Shown: positions 609 to 7,076 of the stretch, one piece after another | Layout: each line of letters opens with the position of its first letter | How positions within the stretch are numbered: position 1 is the first letter of the stretch | Assembly: GCA_026393245.1 (NCBI GenBank) | Contig: JAPLAO010000133.1 | Location: 642-64,641, forward strand | DNA from: Mycobacterium sp. | GTDB taxonomy: Bacteria; Actinomycetota; Actinomycetes; Mycobacteriales; Mycobacteriaceae | DNA: 64,000 nt | Reading direction: 5' to 3' | Notes under the pieces: model-generated | Told to the model about the DNA's origin: nothing | The model's database searches: none | Seen by the model: the letters and a program-made list of their open reading frames with translations, nothing else | Position numbers and translations under genes: made by a program

Positions 609-655
609 AAAAAACGGCACCCGGCGCCGCGCGGATGCGCGAAAGCCGGGTGCCG
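609..655 (-). terminator. Intrinsic terminator for the minus-strand 680-940 gene
   Basis: Perfect 11-bp stem cggcacccggc (615-625) / gccgggtgccg (645-655) next to A6 at 609-614 (U6 on minus strand). Confidence 0.8.
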
Positions 656-679: not shown

Positions 680-940
680 TTACTTGCGGCCCTTCATGAC
701 TGCGCCAACGACCGCGGTCAGGATGGCGCCGACGACGCCGCCGCCGCCCACCGAGCCAGCGATCTGGGCGATGTCGCCACCGGAGCCCAGTACGTTGCCG
801 AGCAGGCCTCCACCCAGTGCGCCGCCGAGAGCTCCGGCGACGCTGTTACCCGCGGTGCCGAGGCTGTTCTTGGCCGCTCCGGCGGCGTTGCCGCCGATCA
901 GGCCACCGACGATGCCGAGCAGCCAGTCTAAATTACCCAT
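680..940 (-). CDS. Small glycine-zipper membrane protein (86 aa)
   Basis: ATG preceded by GGGAGG SD; hydrophobic GxxxG-rich sequence; terminator directly downstream. Confidence 0.7.
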   Translation of the reverse strand: MGNLDWLLGIVGGLIGGNAAGAAKNSLGTAGNSVAGALGGALGGGLLGNVLGSGGDIAQIAGSVGGGGVVGAILTAVVGAVMKGRK

Positions 941-1014: not shown

Positions 1015-2193
1015 CTAGTCGGGGACGGAGTCGCTCTTGTCGGCAACGCTCGAATGCTGATCTCCGACGGCGTTGTTCTCATAGGTGACCTGGACGGCCT
1101 CGGTGGCCGCAGATGATTCCTCGTACCGCACCACGGTCGACAGATCGTGATCGGTGGCCTCGGTGCGGATGGTCGCCTTCGGCGGCTCCGACAGCAGCGG
1201 CCGGGGGGCCGGCGGCGGCGTCACCGGCTTAGGGGCCGGCGGCGGCGGCGGAGCCTTGACCACCGGTGCCGGCCGGGGGGCCGGCGGCGGCGGCGGAGCC
1301 TTGACCACCGGTGCCGGCCGGGGGGCAGGCGGCGGGGTCGGCTTGACCACCGGGGCACGTTCGGCGACCTTCACCGGAACAACCTCGGCTGGCTTGCGCC
1401 GCAGTAACCAACCCAGGCCCGCGACCAAAGGAATGCCGAGCAAGAGCCACAACCAGTTGAAGCCCTTCTTCTTGACGCCAGGATCGGCGGTGACGGAGGT
1501 GGTGGGCTTGCTCATGGACGTGGTCCCTTCTGCAGTCGACGCCGTGGAGCCGAACCCGGGGATCTTGGTGGCCAGGGCGGCCGGGATGGTGACGAGTCCG
1601 GCGGCCTGCGACCACTGGATCTCAGTACCTTCGGGTCCGACGAACTTGCCGGTCTGGACGCCGTCTGCGATCGAGGTGTCGGCGCTGGGATAGCCGAACG
1701 GCCCGGTGACGGCACCGGACTGACGCCAGGCCTCAAGAACGCGGCCCTTGACCACCGATGCGCCCCACTGGGGATTCCAGTAGATGGCGGCGCCCTCGGG
1801 TGCGGAGAAGTCGTTGAAGCGACCGGCGCTGTCGCCGGTGCCGGTCTCATCGTTCGTCGGGAACCCGAGTCCACTGGTGCCGGGGCCGCCGAGGGCCTTG
1901 TAGCGGTCCAGGATCACGCCGTACATCACGTGCGCGCCGGTGTCCTTCGAGTAGAAGATGGCACCGCCCTGGTAATCGCGCTCAGCTCCGCCCGGCACGT
2001 CAACAGCCTCGCCGACCGCCGAACCGAGGAGCGAGCTCTCCCCGCCGAAGGTGCTGTAGCGGTCGTTGATGGTGGAAACCGCGTCGCTCGATGGGGCGGC
2101 GCTCACCAGCGGGGCGCTCAAGAGCGCGGAACTGGCCACGATGAACATTCCGCCGAGGGCGAGTGGGACTCGCAGCGGCACGATTCGCGTCAC
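1015..2193 (-). CDS. LGFP-repeat exported protein with TM anchor and Pro-rich tail
   Basis: GTG with AGGAG SD; N-terminal signal peptide; LGFP-type repeats (LGFPTNDE, FGYPSADT, YQGGAIFYS); TM segment WLWLLLGIPLVAGLGWLL followed by RRK; Pro-rich repeats. Confidence 0.85.
   Translation of the reverse strand: MTRIVPLRVPLALGGMFIVASSALLSAPLVSAAPSSDAVSTINDRYSTFGGESSLLGSAVGEAVDVPGGAERDYQGGAIFYSKDTGAHVMYGVILDRYKALGGPGTSGLGFPTNDETGTGDSAGRFNDFSAPEGAAIYWNPQWGASVVKGRVLEAWRQSGAVTGPFGYPSADTSIADGVQTGKFVGPEGTEIQWSQAAGLVTIPAALATKIPGFGSTASTAEGTTSMSKPTTSVTADPGVKKKGFNWLWLLLGIPLVAGLGWLLRRKPAEVVPVKVAERAPVVKPTPPPAPRPAPVVKAPPPPPAPRPAPVVKAPPPPPAPKPVTPPPAPRPLLSEPPKATIRTEATDHDLSTVVRYEESSAATEAVQVTYENNAVGDQHSSVADKSDSVPD
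1232..1325. repeat. 45-bp tandem duplication encoding PAPRPAPVVKAPPPP x2
   Basis: Direct repeat read in sequence and translation. Confidence 0.8.
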
Positions 2194-2327
2194 AACAATC
2201 TCCTAATTTGGTTCGATTTATCAGAGGTATTCGGTGGGGATTCTTGCAGTGGAGCTACGGAGGTGGGATGACGCCGGGGCGGGAGGGGGGTTCGACCGCC
2301 CCGGCGTCATGCCCGTACGTGCAGCCG

Positions 2328-4427
2328 TCAGCGACGGTGCCGGGGATCGTCGGACTTCGGATCCACGACATAGGACTCGCTGGCCCGGAACACCGTCGAC
2401 TCATCGCCGACGATGTCATCGTCGGGATGCTCACCGGTGGTGCGCTCGACCCACTCGACCTCGCGGGCCTCGCGGTCGACGAACGTGGCCTTGACCTCGG
2501 AGGCCTTGCCCACGGACCGCCGGCTGACGGTGACCTCGTCCGCGCCGTGTTCGACGACACGCTCGACCTGCCGCTCGACGTACTTGTGGACGATCACCGG
2601 CTTCTCGACGACGATCTCGACGATCCGCTCTACCGGCTTCTCGACGATCCTCTCGACCTCGACGTACACCGGCTTCTCGACAATCTTCTCGACCCGGGTC
2701 TCCACCGGCCGCTCAACGATCCGCTCGTTGACGTACTCGACCTCGCGCTCGATCAGCTTCTCCACCAGCACCGGGTTGGTGACGGTCTTCTCGATGATCT
2801 TCTCCGCCGGCCGGTCGATGACCTTCTCGATGATCTTCGGCCGCTCGACGATCTTCTCGACGATGCGGTCGACGGGCTTGTCGATGACCTTCTCGATGAC
2901 GTTGACCTTCTCGACGATCTTTTCGACGATGCGGTCGACGGGCTTGTCGATGATCTTCTCGATGATGTTGGGCTTCTCGACGATCTTTTCGACGACCCGG
3001 TCCACTGCCCGCTCCAGCACCTTCTCAACGATGTTGGGCTTCTCGACGATCTTTTCGACGATGCGGTCGACGGGCTTCTCGATGATCTTCTCGATGATGT
3101 TGGGCTTCTCGACGATCTTTTCGACGATGCGGTCGACTGGCTTGTCGATGACGCGCTCGATGACGTTGACCTTCTCGACGATCTTTTCGACGATGCGGTC
3201 GACGGGCTTCTCGACGGTGCGCTCAACCACGCTGGGCTTCTCGACGACTTTCTCGACGACGCGGTCGACGGGCTTCTCGATGACCTTCTCGATCACGTTG
3301 ACCTTCTCGACGACCTTCTCGACGATCCGGTCGACGGGCTTGTCGACGACGCGCTCGATGATGTTGGGCTTCTCGACGATCTTCTCGACGATGCGGTCGA
3401 CGGGCTTCTCGACGACGCGCTCCACGATCTGCTCGACAACGACCTCGACGATCCTCTCCACGACCTTGACGACCGGCTTCTCGACGGTGATCTCGACGAT
3501 CCTCTCGACCGGCTTCTCCACGGTCTTGTAGACGATCTTCTCGACCGGGATCTCGATGATCTTCTCGACGATCTTCTCGACCGGAACCTCGACCACCTTG
3601 GTGATGATCTTGTCGACCGGCTTCTCGACGACGCGCTCGACGAGTCGCTGGACCTGTACCTCGACGACCTTGTCGACGATGGTGACCACCGGCTGCTCGA
3701 TCAGGCGCTGGACAGTGACGGCCTTGTCGACGACGTTGTCCTGAACCTCGACGAGGAGTCGCTCCACCAGACGCTGTACGTCGACCGACCGATCGACGAC
3801 CTTGTCGACGATCGACACCACCAGCTTCTCGACCAGCCGCTGGATCTCGATCGGCTTATCGGTGATCTTGTCGATGATGTTCACGACGGGGCGCTCGACG
3901 AGGCGTTGGACCTGCACCGGCTTGTCGGTGATCGTGTCCTGCACGGTGACGACCGGGCGTTCGATGGACCGGCTGACCTTGACCGGCTTGTCGACGACCT
4001 GGTCGACCACGGTGACGACCGGGCGTTCGATGGACCGGCTGATCTTCAGCGGCTTGTCGACGACCTGGTCGACCACGGTGACGACCGGGCGCTCGATGAG
4101 GCGGTTGACAGTGACCGCCTTGTCGACGACTCGGTCCTCGACGGTCACGACCGGCCGCTCCAACTGGCGTTGCACCTTGACCGCCTTGTCGACGACCTCA
4201 TCGACCACCGTCACCACGGGGCGCTCGACCAGGCGGGACACCTGGACCGGCTTGTCGACCACCTTATCGACGGTGTCGACGACGAGACGTTCAATGATCC
4301 GCTCGAGCGTCACCGCTTTGTCGACGATCTTCTCTACGGGCCGCTCTACCAGGCGTTGCACCGTATAGGGCTTGTCGACGAAGTTCTCGACGATGTTGAG
4401 GGGTTGGTTGAGATTGTTGTCAGCCAC
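2328..4427 (-). CDS. Val/Ile/Glu/Lys/Pro-rich repeat protein (~699 aa), alveolin/articulin-like composition
   Basis: GTG at 4427 preceded by AAGGGAGA SD; uninterrupted ORF using GC3-rich codons (GTC, GAG, AAG, ATC); two blocks of 22-aa repeats; function unknown. Confidence 0.85.
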   Translation of the reverse strand: MADNNLNQPLNIVENFVDKPYTVQRLVERPVEKIVDKAVTLERIIERLVVDTVDKVVDKPVQVSRLVERPVVTVVDEVVDKAVKVQRQLERPVVTVEDRVVDKAVTVNRLIERPVVTVVDQVVDKPLKISRSIERPVVTVVDQVVDKPVKVSRSIERPVVTVQDTITDKPVQVQRLVERPVVNIIDKITDKPIEIQRLVEKLVVSIVDKVVDRSVDVQRLVERLLVEVQDNVVDKAVTVQRLIEQPVVTIVDKVVEVQVQRLVERVVEKPVDKIITKVVEVPVEKIVEKIIEIPVEKIVYKTVEKPVERIVEITVEKPVVKVVERIVEVVVEQIVERVVEKPVDRIVEKIVEKPNIIERVVDKPVDRIVEKVVEKVNVIEKVIEKPVDRVVEKVVEKPSVVERTVEKPVDRIVEKIVEKVNVIERVIDKPVDRIVEKIVEKPNIIEKIIEKPVDRIVEKIVEKPNIVEKVLERAVDRVVEKIVEKPNIIEKIIDKPVDRIVEKIVEKVNVIEKVIDKPVDRIVEKIVERPKIIEKVIDRPAEKIIEKTVTNPVLVEKLIEREVEYVNERIVERPVETRVEKIVEKPVYVEVERIVEKPVERIVEIVVEKPVIVHKYVERQVERVVEHGADEVTVSRRSVGKASEVKATFVDREAREVEWVERTTGEHPDDDIVGDESTVFRASESYVVDPKSDDPRHRR

Positions 4428-4848
4428 AGGGTTCTCCCTTTCGCGCGTCCGGACCAGGCGGAGCGACCGTATCAGGGTCAACGGCGATTCCGCTAAGTAA
4501 TCGAAACGTTGCTGTAATCGCACGTCGATGACGCGAAACAGTCCGCAGCAGCGATCCGAAGCAAGCCAGGTCGTTTTTTGTGTTCGAGTTAGATTCTTGA
4601 AGCTAGTCCCACGATTATTTGCCTTGCAAGGTTTTCGCAAAAGTTCTCCGGAACGACCTCTGCCGTTTACCAGGCGAGGCGCGCAGGTGGTCGCCACCGC
4701 GGGTGTTCTCCCCCGATAGGGCCACGGTTTCCGATCACGACGACCCGAATTGACGGCCGGCGCCGGGCCAGCCCTGCACCTGCCCGGGTTGGAACAGCAG
4801 GGCAGTCGTCGCCGATCTAATGGCGCTGGCGGTACCGGTGGGCCCCCG

Positions 4849-5637
4849 CTAGTCCGCGCCGAGCAGTCGCCGCATCAGTCGATGGGCGCCGGCCACCACC
4901 TTGGCGCGGTCGGGATCGTTTCGCCCCGCGAGGTCCTCGGCGTTGCCGCCGGCGATCCACACCGGACCATTTCCTAACTGCGCCAGACCTTCTCGGGCCA
5001 CGTCCGCGGGTTCGGCGACGCGCAGACCCGGCACGTCGAAGTTCAATCCAGCCCGCTCCATCGCCGGGGTTCGGGTGACGCCTAGAACGAGTTCCAGGAC
5101 GTCGACATTGTGCTCGCGCAGCTCCAACCAGAGACCTTCGGCGAAGATCCGCCCGAATGCCTTCACCCCGCCGTACACGGTGTGCCGGGCCGAACCCAGA
5201 TAGCCGGCCATCGAGCCCACGAGCACAATTCCGCCGCGGCGACGCTCACGCATCGGACGGGCGTAATGCTGGACCAGCGCCATCATGGTGGTGACATTCA
5301 CGTCGATGACCTGCTGGAAAGCGGAGAGGTCGGCGTCCAGGAACTCCGCACTGGCCGTGTTCGCGCCGGCGTTGTAGACCAGCAACCCGATTTCCAGGTC
5401 GTCGGTGAATGAAGTGACCGCCTCCACTGCGCCGCTTTCCGCGAGATCGGTTGGCAGAGTGCGTACTTCGACTCCGCGGTGGCGGCATTCCCGTGCTGTG
5501 GATTCCAGTGGTCCGGGGTTGCGAGCAAATAGGGCGAGGTTGATCCCGGCATCGGCCAACTGCAATGCGAACTCGGCGCCCACTCCTTCCGACCCGCCGG
5601 CCACCACGGCCCATGGCCCGTATTTCGCAAGCGACAC
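4849..5637 (-). CDS. Short-chain dehydrogenase/reductase
   Basis: KYGPWAVVAGGSEGVG nucleotide-binding motif, YNAG, YGGVK catalytic YxxxK; start placed at GTG 5637. Confidence 0.9.
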   Translation of the reverse strand: MSLAKYGPWAVVAGGSEGVGAEFALQLADAGINLALFARNPGPLESTARECRHRGVEVRTLPTDLAESGAVEAVTSFTDDLEIGLLVYNAGANTASAEFLDADLSAFQQVIDVNVTTMMALVQHYARPMRERRRGGIVLVGSMAGYLGSARHTVYGGVKAFGRIFAEGLWLELREHNVDVLELVLGVTRTPAMERAGLNFDVPGLRVAEPADVAREGLAQLGNGPVWIAGGNAEDLAGRNDPDRAKVVAGAHRLMRRLLGAD

Positions 5638-5732
5638 CCGTTGATCATCCCGCACATTGGTCGCCGCGGAGATCGCCTGCCGGGTGGTGGTTGCGGGCGT
5701 CTGCTGGATTTGGCGCGTGGTAAGCCTGATCG

Positions 5733-7076
5733 GTGTCTGACAGCCTGTTTGACCTTCCCGGCGACCCCGGGTGGGCGGCCGCGACGACGTCGGCGTCGGC
5801 ACCTTTGGCGGTCCGGATGCGCCCGGCTGCGCTCGAGGAGGTGGTGGGCCAGGCACATCTGCTGGGGCCCGGGTCGCCGTTGCGTCGACTCATCGAAGGC
5901 ACCGGCGCCGCGTCGGTGATCCTCTACGGCCCGCCTGGCACCGGTAAGACCACCCTGGCCTCGCTGATCTCGCACGCGACCGGGCGCCGATTTGAGGCGC
6001 TGTCGGCGCTGACTGCCGGGGTCAAGGAGGTCCGGGCGGTCGTCGATACCGCCCGCACGGCACTGATCCGCGGTGAGCAGACGGTGTTGTTCATCGACGA
6101 GGTCCACCGGTTTTCCAAAACCCAGCAGGACGCCCTGCTGGCCGCGGTTGAGAACCGGGTGGTGCTGTTGGTGGCCGCGACCACCGAGAACCCGTCGTTC
6201 TCGGTGGTCGCGCCACTGCTGTCCCGCTCGCTGATCCTGCAACTGCATCCGCTGACGCCGGACGATATCCGCGCCGTGGTGCGCCGAGCGGTCGCCGATC
6301 CGCGCGGACTGGGCGGCGCGGTGGCCGTTGCGGACGACGCGGTGGAACTACTGGTCAAACTTGCCGCCGGCGATGCCCGCCGGGCGCTGACGGCGCTGGA
6401 GGTCGCCGCGGAGACGGCGGCGGCGGCCGGGGACGCCGTCACAGTCGTGACCGTTGAACAGTCACTGGACCAGGCGGCGGTGCGTTATGACCGCGACGGT
6501 GACCAGCACTACGACGTGATCAGTGCGTTCATCAAGAGTATGCGCGGGTCCGACGTCGATGCGGCACTGCATTACCTGGCCCGGATGCTGGTGGCCGGTG
6601 AGGATCCCCGGTTTCTGGCGCGACGGCTGGTGATCCTCGCCAGCGAGGACATCGGAATGGCCGATCCAACCGCGTTACTCATCGCGGTCGCGGCGGCACA
6701 GACCGTTGCGCTGATCGGAATGCCGGAAGCTCAGTTGACCCTGGCTCACGCCACCGTGTACCTGGCGACTGCGCCGAAGTCGAATGCGGTCACCACGGCA
6801 CTGGGCGCGGCGATGGGCGATATCCGGGCGGGCAAAGCCGGTTTGGTGCCTGCCCACCTTCGGGACGGGCATTATCCGAGTGCGGCCCAACTCGGTAATG
6901 CGCAGGACTATCGATATCCGCATGATGACCCGGATGGTGTTGTGGCACAACAGTATCCGCCGGATGAGATATCCGATGTCGACTACTACCTGCCGACCAC
7001 GCATGGTGCTGAGCGGGAGATCGCCGGCCGGTTGGAGAAAGACTCTTCGTTGCCCATCAGAACCCGAAGCTTCTGA
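5733..7076 (+). CDS. rarA: Replication-associated recombination protein A (MgsA/RarA AAA+ ATPase)
   Basis: [55 protein letters not shown]. Confidence 0.95.

Follow-up and report, generated by a model that had tools for sequence, protein, structure and literature searches.

A tandem-repeat protein of alveolin-like composition and its adjacent wall-binding partner: a candidate envelope module in Mycobacteriaceae

The 64,000-nucleotide stretch of DNA analysed here (the window; Mycobacterium sp., assembly GCA_026393245.1, contig JAPLAO010000133.1, positions 642 to 64,641) carries on its minus strand a gene for a 699-residue protein built largely of tandem repeats (2328–4427), a gene for a 392-residue partner protein directly downstream of it (1015–2193), and a third gene for an 86-residue, glycine-rich small hydrophobic protein (680–940). 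The first-pass annotation, made from the sequence alone, had likened the repeat protein to the alveolins and articulins of protist membrane skeletons and proposed it as a possible unrecognised cortical scaffold of a mycobacterium. That placement of the host holds at the family level, Mycobacteriaceae, on the basis of the flanking alaS and rarA genes, which are 83–96% identical to those of Mycobacteriaceae and Mycolicibacterium genomes.

In the open reading frame (ORF) listing of the window, the maximal minus-strand ORF extends from 2328 to 4697, and translation is assigned to the GTG at 4427, with the stop codon at 2328–2330. The start at GTG 4427 and the 699-residue product, both proposed previously, are upheld by a Shine–Dalgarno sequence, AGGGAG (4434–4439, minus strand), 6 nucleotides before the GTG; orthologues carry GGAGG or AAGGG at this position, and five of them have ATG where the window gene has GTG. 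The earlier description of a product made almost only of seven residue types is likewise accurate, as valine (26%), glutamate (13.6%), isoleucine (10.3%), lysine (10.3%), arginine (8.4%), aspartate (6.9%), and proline (6.2%) sum to 82% of the protein, and alanine and glycine make up 1.7% and 0.6%. Neither a transmembrane (TM) segment nor a signal peptide is found in the 699-residue protein, as had been stated, according to a Kyte–Doolittle scan (maximal 19-residue mean, 1.14) and to the spacing of charges, the longest charge-free run being 10 residues.

The internal organisation of the protein was delineated with Tandem Repeats Finder on the DNA, and the residue units were then written in register. 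Tandem Repeats Finder reports 66-nucleotide arrays at 2815–3416 (9.1 copies, 83% matches) and 3881–4271, and a 198-nucleotide super-period spanning 3661–4327. After a variable start (residues 1–12), the first array consists of eleven 22-residue units of the VDKPVQVSRLVERPVVTVVDEV type (3666–4391, minus strand; residues 13–254), and within it lie two proline-poor 22-mers (3732–3863, minus strand; residues 189–232), delimited by ortholog alignment and AlphaFold2 and rich in invariant residues; the invariant columns of this centre are Q196, R197, E200, K201, L202, V203, V204, V207, D208, Q218, R219, L220, V221, and E222. Seven 12-residue units of the VEVPVEKIVEKI type follow (3414–3665, minus strand; residues 255–338), with many invariant columns, and these are, as judged from sequence comparison, the most alveolin-like and best conserved stretch of the protein. 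The second array contains ten 22-residue units of the VEKPVDRIVEKIVEKPNIIERV type (2754–3413, minus strand; residues 339–558) with a net charge of +1, and leads into a 12-mer-like C-terminal stretch (2553–2753, minus strand; residues 559–625) that was delimited by ortholog alignment, ends with VEKPVIVHKYVE..VERVVEH, and gives the best match to the Pfam family IMCp. Overall, 22-mers account for two thirds of the repeats and 12-mers for one third. The protein closes with a conserved, non-repeat tail of 74 residues (2331–2552, minus strand; residues 626–699), which carries EWVER.TGEHP.D.IVGD and a basic end, RHRR, and has a net charge of −7. This layout agrees with the one outlined before (about ten 22-mers, a linker, and nine to ten further 22-mers) in all but one respect: the tail is acidic, as described, but it is not short.

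The repeat gene is genuine and under purifying selection. In its minus-strand frame, the G+C contents of codon positions 1, 2, and 3 are 0.69, 0.23, and 0.92, and comparison of the unique parts of the protein with three close orthologues gives 44/24/117, 37/22/110, and 50/27/125 differences at the three positions. Synonymous changes outnumber non-synonymous changes in this frame (89–91 versus 53–67 changed codons), whereas the exact antisense frame shows 14–19 synonymous versus 124–144 non-synonymous changes. The idea that the repeat ORF is no gene, being either a by-product of repeated DNA or the reverse of a true gene on the opposite strand, draws on a 777-residue, D/L-rich plus-strand ORF that runs across the identical DNA (2163–4496) and on an antisense gene placed by a gene caller at the equivalent position of one public assembly (L039, 3983–4747). 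It nevertheless deserves practically no credence, given the clear preference of the codon-position and synonymous/non-synonymous tests for the minus frame, the conservation among orthologues of the start position behind a Shine–Dalgarno-like site, of the tail, and of the stop codon, and the retention of the unique head and tail as far as Nocardia and Branchiibius. The plus-strand ORF is itself rejected as a gene by the G+C content of its third codon positions (GC3), 0.68, and by the non-synonymous excess of the antisense frame; it stays open solely because TTA, CTA, and TCA are seldom used on the sense strand.

The repeat gene is also transcribed. Sequence words of the gene occur in 18 metatranscriptome runs, mostly from lakes, with up to 44% of its words recovered, and contigs from four lake runs cover 2341–4580, with perfect matches over the unique tail (2376–2685). 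In the same four lake metatranscriptomes, the neighbouring SDR gene, rarA, and alaS are almost bare, which argues for RNA and not carried-over DNA as the source of the contigs. Lack of a transcript had been named in the first-pass annotation as an observation that would speak against its proposal; metatranscriptome contigs of the gene were found. The contigs are deeper on the repeat gene than on the partner gene. The contigs end near 4574–4580, short of 4697, and these ends fit a promoter-like pair at 4629–4600 on the minus strand (−35 TTGCAA, 4629–4624; 18-nucleotide spacer; −10 TAGCTT, 4605–4600), not the upstream GTG at 4697. A simple sigma-70 consensus scan flagged no promoter, and the pair came from the comparison of orthologous upstream regions, in which the hexamers are kept as TTGCAx ... 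TAGTTT/TAATTT/TAACTT; the transcript is predicted to start near 4593, with a 5′ leader of about 165 nucleotides. The 134-nucleotide spacer between the repeat and partner genes folds at −48.9 kcal/mol and contains a G+C-rich hairpin of about 15 pairs with no U tract (2270–2308, minus strand), which may act as a partial terminator or as a stabiliser of the RNA 3′ end, and could set the ratio of the repeat-protein and partner products. A terminator-like hairpin with a T run (610–638, minus strand) closes the three-gene unit, and no family reaches its gathering score in an Rfam scan of the whole window (1–64000).

The partner gene lies directly 3′ of the repeat gene in every locus whose contig continues. 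Its product comprises, in this order, a signal peptide, LGFP repeats (Pfam match, 2e-27), one TM segment (FNWLWLLLGIPLVAGLGWLL) followed by RRK, a proline-rich linker, and a C-terminal motif. The predicted cytoplasmic end with the motif VQVTYENNAVGDQHSSVADKSD (1018–1200, minus strand) is conserved from Mycobacteriaceae to Nocardia, Branchiibius, and locus L018, the conserved C-terminal motif being VTYENNAVG..DKSD, and this tail motif is rare, with 14 representative proteins among 1.84 billion. In Branchiibius, PG_binding_1 (5e-14) replaces the LGFP repeats, while the TM segment, the linker, and the C-terminal motif are kept. As the outer wall-binding domain has been swapped and the inner motif retained, a conserved contact is expected on the cytoplasmic side, and this contact is provisionally assigned to the repeat protein, the sole conserved neighbour predicted to be cytoplasmic. 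The cytoplasmic linker of the partner (window 1015–1450) is a lineage-specific tandem repeat whose length varies greatly, made of PAPRPAPVVKAPPPPP units in the window, of PVVREPAK (six copies) in Branchiibius, and of TVVEKK.PP in L018. An actinobacterial two-gene module is defined here by a repeat protein with the head PYTVQRLVERPVEK, a proline-poor centre, and the tail EWVER.TGEHP, and by a downstream gene whose product combines a domain that binds the wall with a TM segment, a linker rich in Pro, and a TYENNAVG..DKSD end; all of these elements were found.

The search of bacterial genomes for homologues and their neighbourhoods, which had been recommended earlier, was run on a genome set with a single representative for each prokaryotic species and recovered at least about 30 orthologous loci, with the conserved partner gene in each one whose contig continues. 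Among the matches listed, the carriers are metagenome-assembled genomes (MAGs) of lake Mycobacteriaceae, a Mycolicibacterium sp., Nocardia alba, four other Nocardia, Branchiibius cervicis, and an unclassified Actinomycetes MAG, and the nearest relative is L005, which is 95% identical; the DNA runs that contain the window sequence are freshwater metagenomes. Ten full-length orthologues of 461–931 residues align end to end. They carry between about 5 and 27 units, and their lengths differ by whole 22-residue units, which is the behaviour to be expected if the arrays serve as a structural element or a spacer. Conserved across the orthologues are the head (..PYTVQRLVERPVEK..VIERLVVDTVD..), the proline-poor 22-mer pair, the block of 12-mers, the VEKPVIVHKYVE block of the C-terminal region, and the tail. 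In Branchiibius (L006, 7989–9866), both arrays are made of near-identical units, for example four copies of VTDKPVTVSRLVEKPIVTVTDK, a sign that units have recently expanded or been homogenised in that lineage.

The repeat-protein family is so far undescribed. The 699-residue product is not on record in an exact-sequence look-up, NCBIfam has no family for it, and a literature search covering alveolins and articulins in bacteria, mycobacterial LGFP proteins, and the literal repeat peptides returned nothing on the family, in keeping with the previous remark that no characterised mycobacterial protein of this kind was known. A database search with the whole protein returned 1433 matches, with a best identity of 40%, all of them confined to repeats and belonging to other families; the N-terminal half finds almost exclusively non-orthologous repeat proteins, and the C-terminal part retrieves only fragments of 60–180 residues of the family from public protein sets, because contig ends, scaffold N runs, and frameshifts break the orthologues. 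Short-read assemblies break or carry N runs inside the arrays, and long-read assemblies have frameshifts. Gaps of 100 N are present in L040 (4889–4988 and 5756–5855), and broken arrays are also seen in L039 (3357–5316), L010, L026, and L029. Two loci (L013 and L030; CAMCWJ01) come from a MAG labelled Bifidobacterium breve, and they show the mycobacterial synteny of alaS, rarA, SDR gene, and repeat gene, their proteins being 74–88% identical to those of the window; either the MAG is apparently mislabelled or its bin is contaminated.

Often, although not always, the partner gene is followed by the third gene (680–940, minus strand), which gives tblastn matches in L002, L008, L020, L021, L025, and L030 and is called as a gene in L038, L040, and L041; a Pfam search finds no match for its 86-residue product. 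Only in Mycobacteriaceae is the locus linked to rarA and alaS. An SDR-family gene (4849–5856, minus strand) lies between rarA and the repeat gene only in some relatives (L002, L005, L013, and L014), and its maximal ORF has a long Pro/Arg-rich N-terminal extension, with the SDR domain beginning at about residue 82; this extension is probably not translated.

The repeat protein had been predicted to be beta-rich, and for most of its length this finds no support. The hydrophobic moment peaks at 98 degrees in both 22-mer arrays (3.67 residues, equal to 22/6 or 11/3) and at 90 degrees in the 12-mers (4.0 residues), while the component at 180 degrees is weaker in the second array and almost nil elsewhere. 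The AlphaFold monomer model proposed in the first-pass annotation was obtained at low confidence and is not made mostly of strands. With a heterogeneous alignment of 75 rows, AlphaFold2 predicts helices only, at a mean predicted local distance difference test score (pLDDT) of 51, and a single segment is modelled with confidence, a helix, H192–244, in the proline-poor centre (residues 190–245, pLDDT 79–91). Without an alignment, the mean pLDDT is 37; the 12-mers and the second array are predicted as helical, and the first array shows short paired strands. A PDB sequence search gives only chance-level matches, to a Pumilio domain and to engineered OspA repeats.

Such periodicity raises the possibility of an amphipathic-helix coat protein, in which each 22-mer, consisting of two 11-mers, would lie flat on the inner leaflet or on triacylglycerol droplets, which are common in Mycobacteriales, and the partner would serve only in recruitment. 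The repeat protein shares with exchangeable apolipoproteins and perilipins an architecture of proline-punctuated tandem 22-mers of two 11-mers with an 11/3 hydrophobic period. The periods of 3.67 residues in both arrays and 4.0 residues in the 12-mers, the helices that each of the two AlphaFold2 runs predicts in the 12-mers and in the second array, and a weak match of the L007 orthologue to the Apolipoprotein family (E 1.7e-4; 21.8 bits versus a cutoff of 90) are all in keeping with a coat. However, the window repeats contain two prolines per 22 residues, twice as many as those lipid-binding proteins, and an apolar face of only beta-branched valine and isoleucine where known lipid-binding 11-mers have leucine, alanine, and phenylalanine, and there is no significant sequence match to them. 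Furthermore, no lipid-metabolism genes are linked to the repeat gene, a droplet coat needs no wall-binding partner, and the helix predictions are of low confidence; a coat function is therefore considered unlikely.

Alveolins constitute the IMC1 family of apicomplexans, ciliates, and dinoflagellates and form a filamentous network under the cortical alveoli. Like alveolins, the window protein is rich in V, I, E, K, and P and lacks a TM segment, its 12-mers and C-terminal stretch resemble alveolin units, and for both, a position beneath a membrane with membrane proteins as anchors has been proposed. Unlike alveolins, it is encoded by a bacterium, an actinobacterium that has no alveoli; its 22-mer arrays have an 11/3 hydrophobic period; and it has a head, a proline-poor centre, and a tail of its own. 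With articulins and epiplastins it shares low-complexity alternation of hydrophobic and charged residues and a paucity of alanine and glycine, but the VPV and VYV modules of articulins are essentially missing from the window protein, which has EVPVE and KPV motifs instead. Articulin-like proteins of Caulobacter, noted without functional study (Goodenough et al. 2018, PMC6212826), offer a bacterial precedent, although the lineage here is Actinomycetota and a wall-binding partner gene is unreported for the Caulobacter proteins. The earlier view that such proteins are unrecognised in bacteria is accordingly not supported, the more so since like repeats are widespread in membrane-anchored bacterial proteins.

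A search with the Pfam hidden Markov model of IMCp (PF12314), which had also been suggested, gives 27.1 bits for the window protein against a cutoff of 21.1, over residues 560–622, and none of four shuffled copies of the protein gives a match, so the match reflects residue order and not just composition. The score is unstable, however: among four orthologues scanned, L018 reaches 25.3 bits, and L007, L006, and L004 fall below the cutoff at 19.1, 16.6, and 12.5. Three of the four scanned orthologues score above the cutoff of DUF445, the window protein attains that of DnaG_DnaB_bind, and the reversed window protein passes the cutoff of MgtE_N; scores of this size therefore follow from the periodic hydrophobic/charged pattern and are no evidence of descent. 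The likeness claimed earlier is thus supported for the composition and the 12-residue units of the window protein, which also reaches the IMCp cutoff, and not for homology or transfer; the protein is not an established member of the alveolin family. A true IMCp homologue, passed horizontally from or to protists, would account for the 27.1-bit match, for its loss on shuffling, and for the presence of some eukaryotic IMCp-bearing proteins among the search matches (P0049 and P0170). Apart from the instability of the scores and the equal performance of unrelated families, such descent is opposed by the main arrays, which are 22-mers where alveolins have tandem 12-residue EKIVEVP-type units (PMC4303705), by the codon usage of the repeat gene, which is that of the host, and by the lack of any eukaryotic counterpart of the head, centre, and tail, the best database identity of 40% lying over the repeats. 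Homology by transfer is hence highly improbable, and the alveolin-style repeat is most likely a case of convergence. Recent transfer from eukaryotes is rejected in view of the host-type codon usage (GC3 0.92) and the distribution of the family.

The closest database matches are instead bacterial membrane-anchored proteins with EK/V repeats and helix-hairpin-helix (HhH) domains (P0012 and P0040), with 35–48% identity over repeats of the VEKPVDRVVEKIVEK type. In these COG3743-type, ‘flap endonuclease-1-like’ proteins, the repeats adjoin a membrane anchor, but the proteins have an N-terminal TM segment and an HhH/DUF4332 domain of their own, neither of which is present in the window protein according to Pfam and the TM scan. 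Orthology to them was considered and rejected, as they lack the head, centre, and tail. They form a large, mostly metagenomic bacterial class with an N-terminal anchor, VEKIVEKRVEVPVDRIVEK-type repeats, and a C-terminal HhH/DUF4332 domain (P0012, P0040, and P0007/P0002), and may be membrane-to-nucleoid tethers; VEKIVEKRVEVPVDRIVEK-type repeats occur in ParB, FHA, GYF_2, OstA, and OmpA-domain proteins as well. That like repeats elsewhere in bacteria share a polypeptide with an N-terminal membrane anchor fits a membrane-proximal role.

The same proteins suggest a passive, non-polymerising spacer or flexible polyampholyte, whose repeats would merely keep a fixed distance between the membrane anchor and the conserved head, centre, or tail. 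Similar repeats do so in cis in membrane-anchored HhH, ParB, FHA, and GYF proteins, and like repeats are fused to PF14520/PF14229 HhH, PF02195 ParB, PF00498 FHA, PF14237 GYF_2, and PF03968 OstA domains. A spacer would also accommodate the variation from about 5 to 27 units between orthologues, the charge neutrality of the arrays, and the low AlphaFold2 confidence. Yet the conservation inside the arrays, with invariant positions and synonymous changes exceeding non-synonymous ones, goes beyond the needs of a mere spacer, a content of about 40% V, I, and L is unusual for a soluble disordered linker, and no effector domain is attached to the repeat protein. This explanation is likewise improbable, to the same degree as a lipid coat.

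The reading preferred here, to which we assign a probability of roughly 0.45, is that the locus encodes a two-gene envelope module, often joined by a third gene, in which a cytoplasmic repeat scaffold is tethered to the wall through the partner; it ranks ahead of the lipid coat and the spacer, which share second place. In this scheme, the host would be a planktonic freshwater member of Mycobacteriaceae, and the charge-balanced repeat protein would stay in the cytoplasm. The partner is predicted to span the membrane once, exposing its wall-binding domain to the exterior and its C-terminal peptide to the cytoplasm, where this peptide would dock the repeat protein, perhaps at the conserved centre or at the tail. 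The arrays may then form an extended element under the membrane, its length tuned by the number of units and its position fixed to the wall, so that the module would resemble a membrane skeleton with a tether, as in alveolin networks, although of independent origin. The cortical part of the scaffold claim made in the first-pass annotation gains indirect support from the always-adjacent, wall-binding partner with its conserved cytoplasmic tail. A cytoplasmic scaffold coupled to the wall via a single-pass protein would have functional analogues in RodZ, bactofilins, crescentin, DivIVA, and FilP/Scy, none of which is related to the window protein in sequence or domains. A more far-reaching version, in which the repeat protein assembles below the membrane into a polymeric lattice or a layer of filaments, riveted via the partner to the peptidoglycan–arabinogalactan wall, as an independent counterpart of the epiplast or alveolin network and a new class of cytoskeleton in Mycobacteriales, is rather doubtful.

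Several points weigh against a tethered scaffold. Binding between repeat protein and partner, polymerisation, and localisation are all inferred from sequence; the adjacency of the two genes could reflect co-regulation only; AlphaFold2 gives no confident overall fold; the RNA evidence consists of assembled contigs that carry no strand information; and, judging by the matches listed, the family is likely, though not certainly, absent from model mycobacteria.

What is new here is a periodic V/E/K/P repeat protein of a known cortical style in a new lineage and with a new partner gene. The partner gene gives the repeat-protein family a testable context and is the most informative result of the analysis. 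The locus also exemplifies how a conserved, well-expressed gene is missed by automated annotation, as its repeats break assemblies and create an antisense ORF. If the protein is indeed a wall-tethered cortical scaffold, it would represent a new type of bacterial cytoskeletal element, and the alveolin/articulin style of membrane skeleton would have evolved more than once. In that case, the module would also provide a tractable bacterial system for the structure of such repeats, as Nocardia alba and Branchiibius cervicis are culturable. The module could, finally, account for a trait of planktonic mycobacteria, about whose biology little is known.

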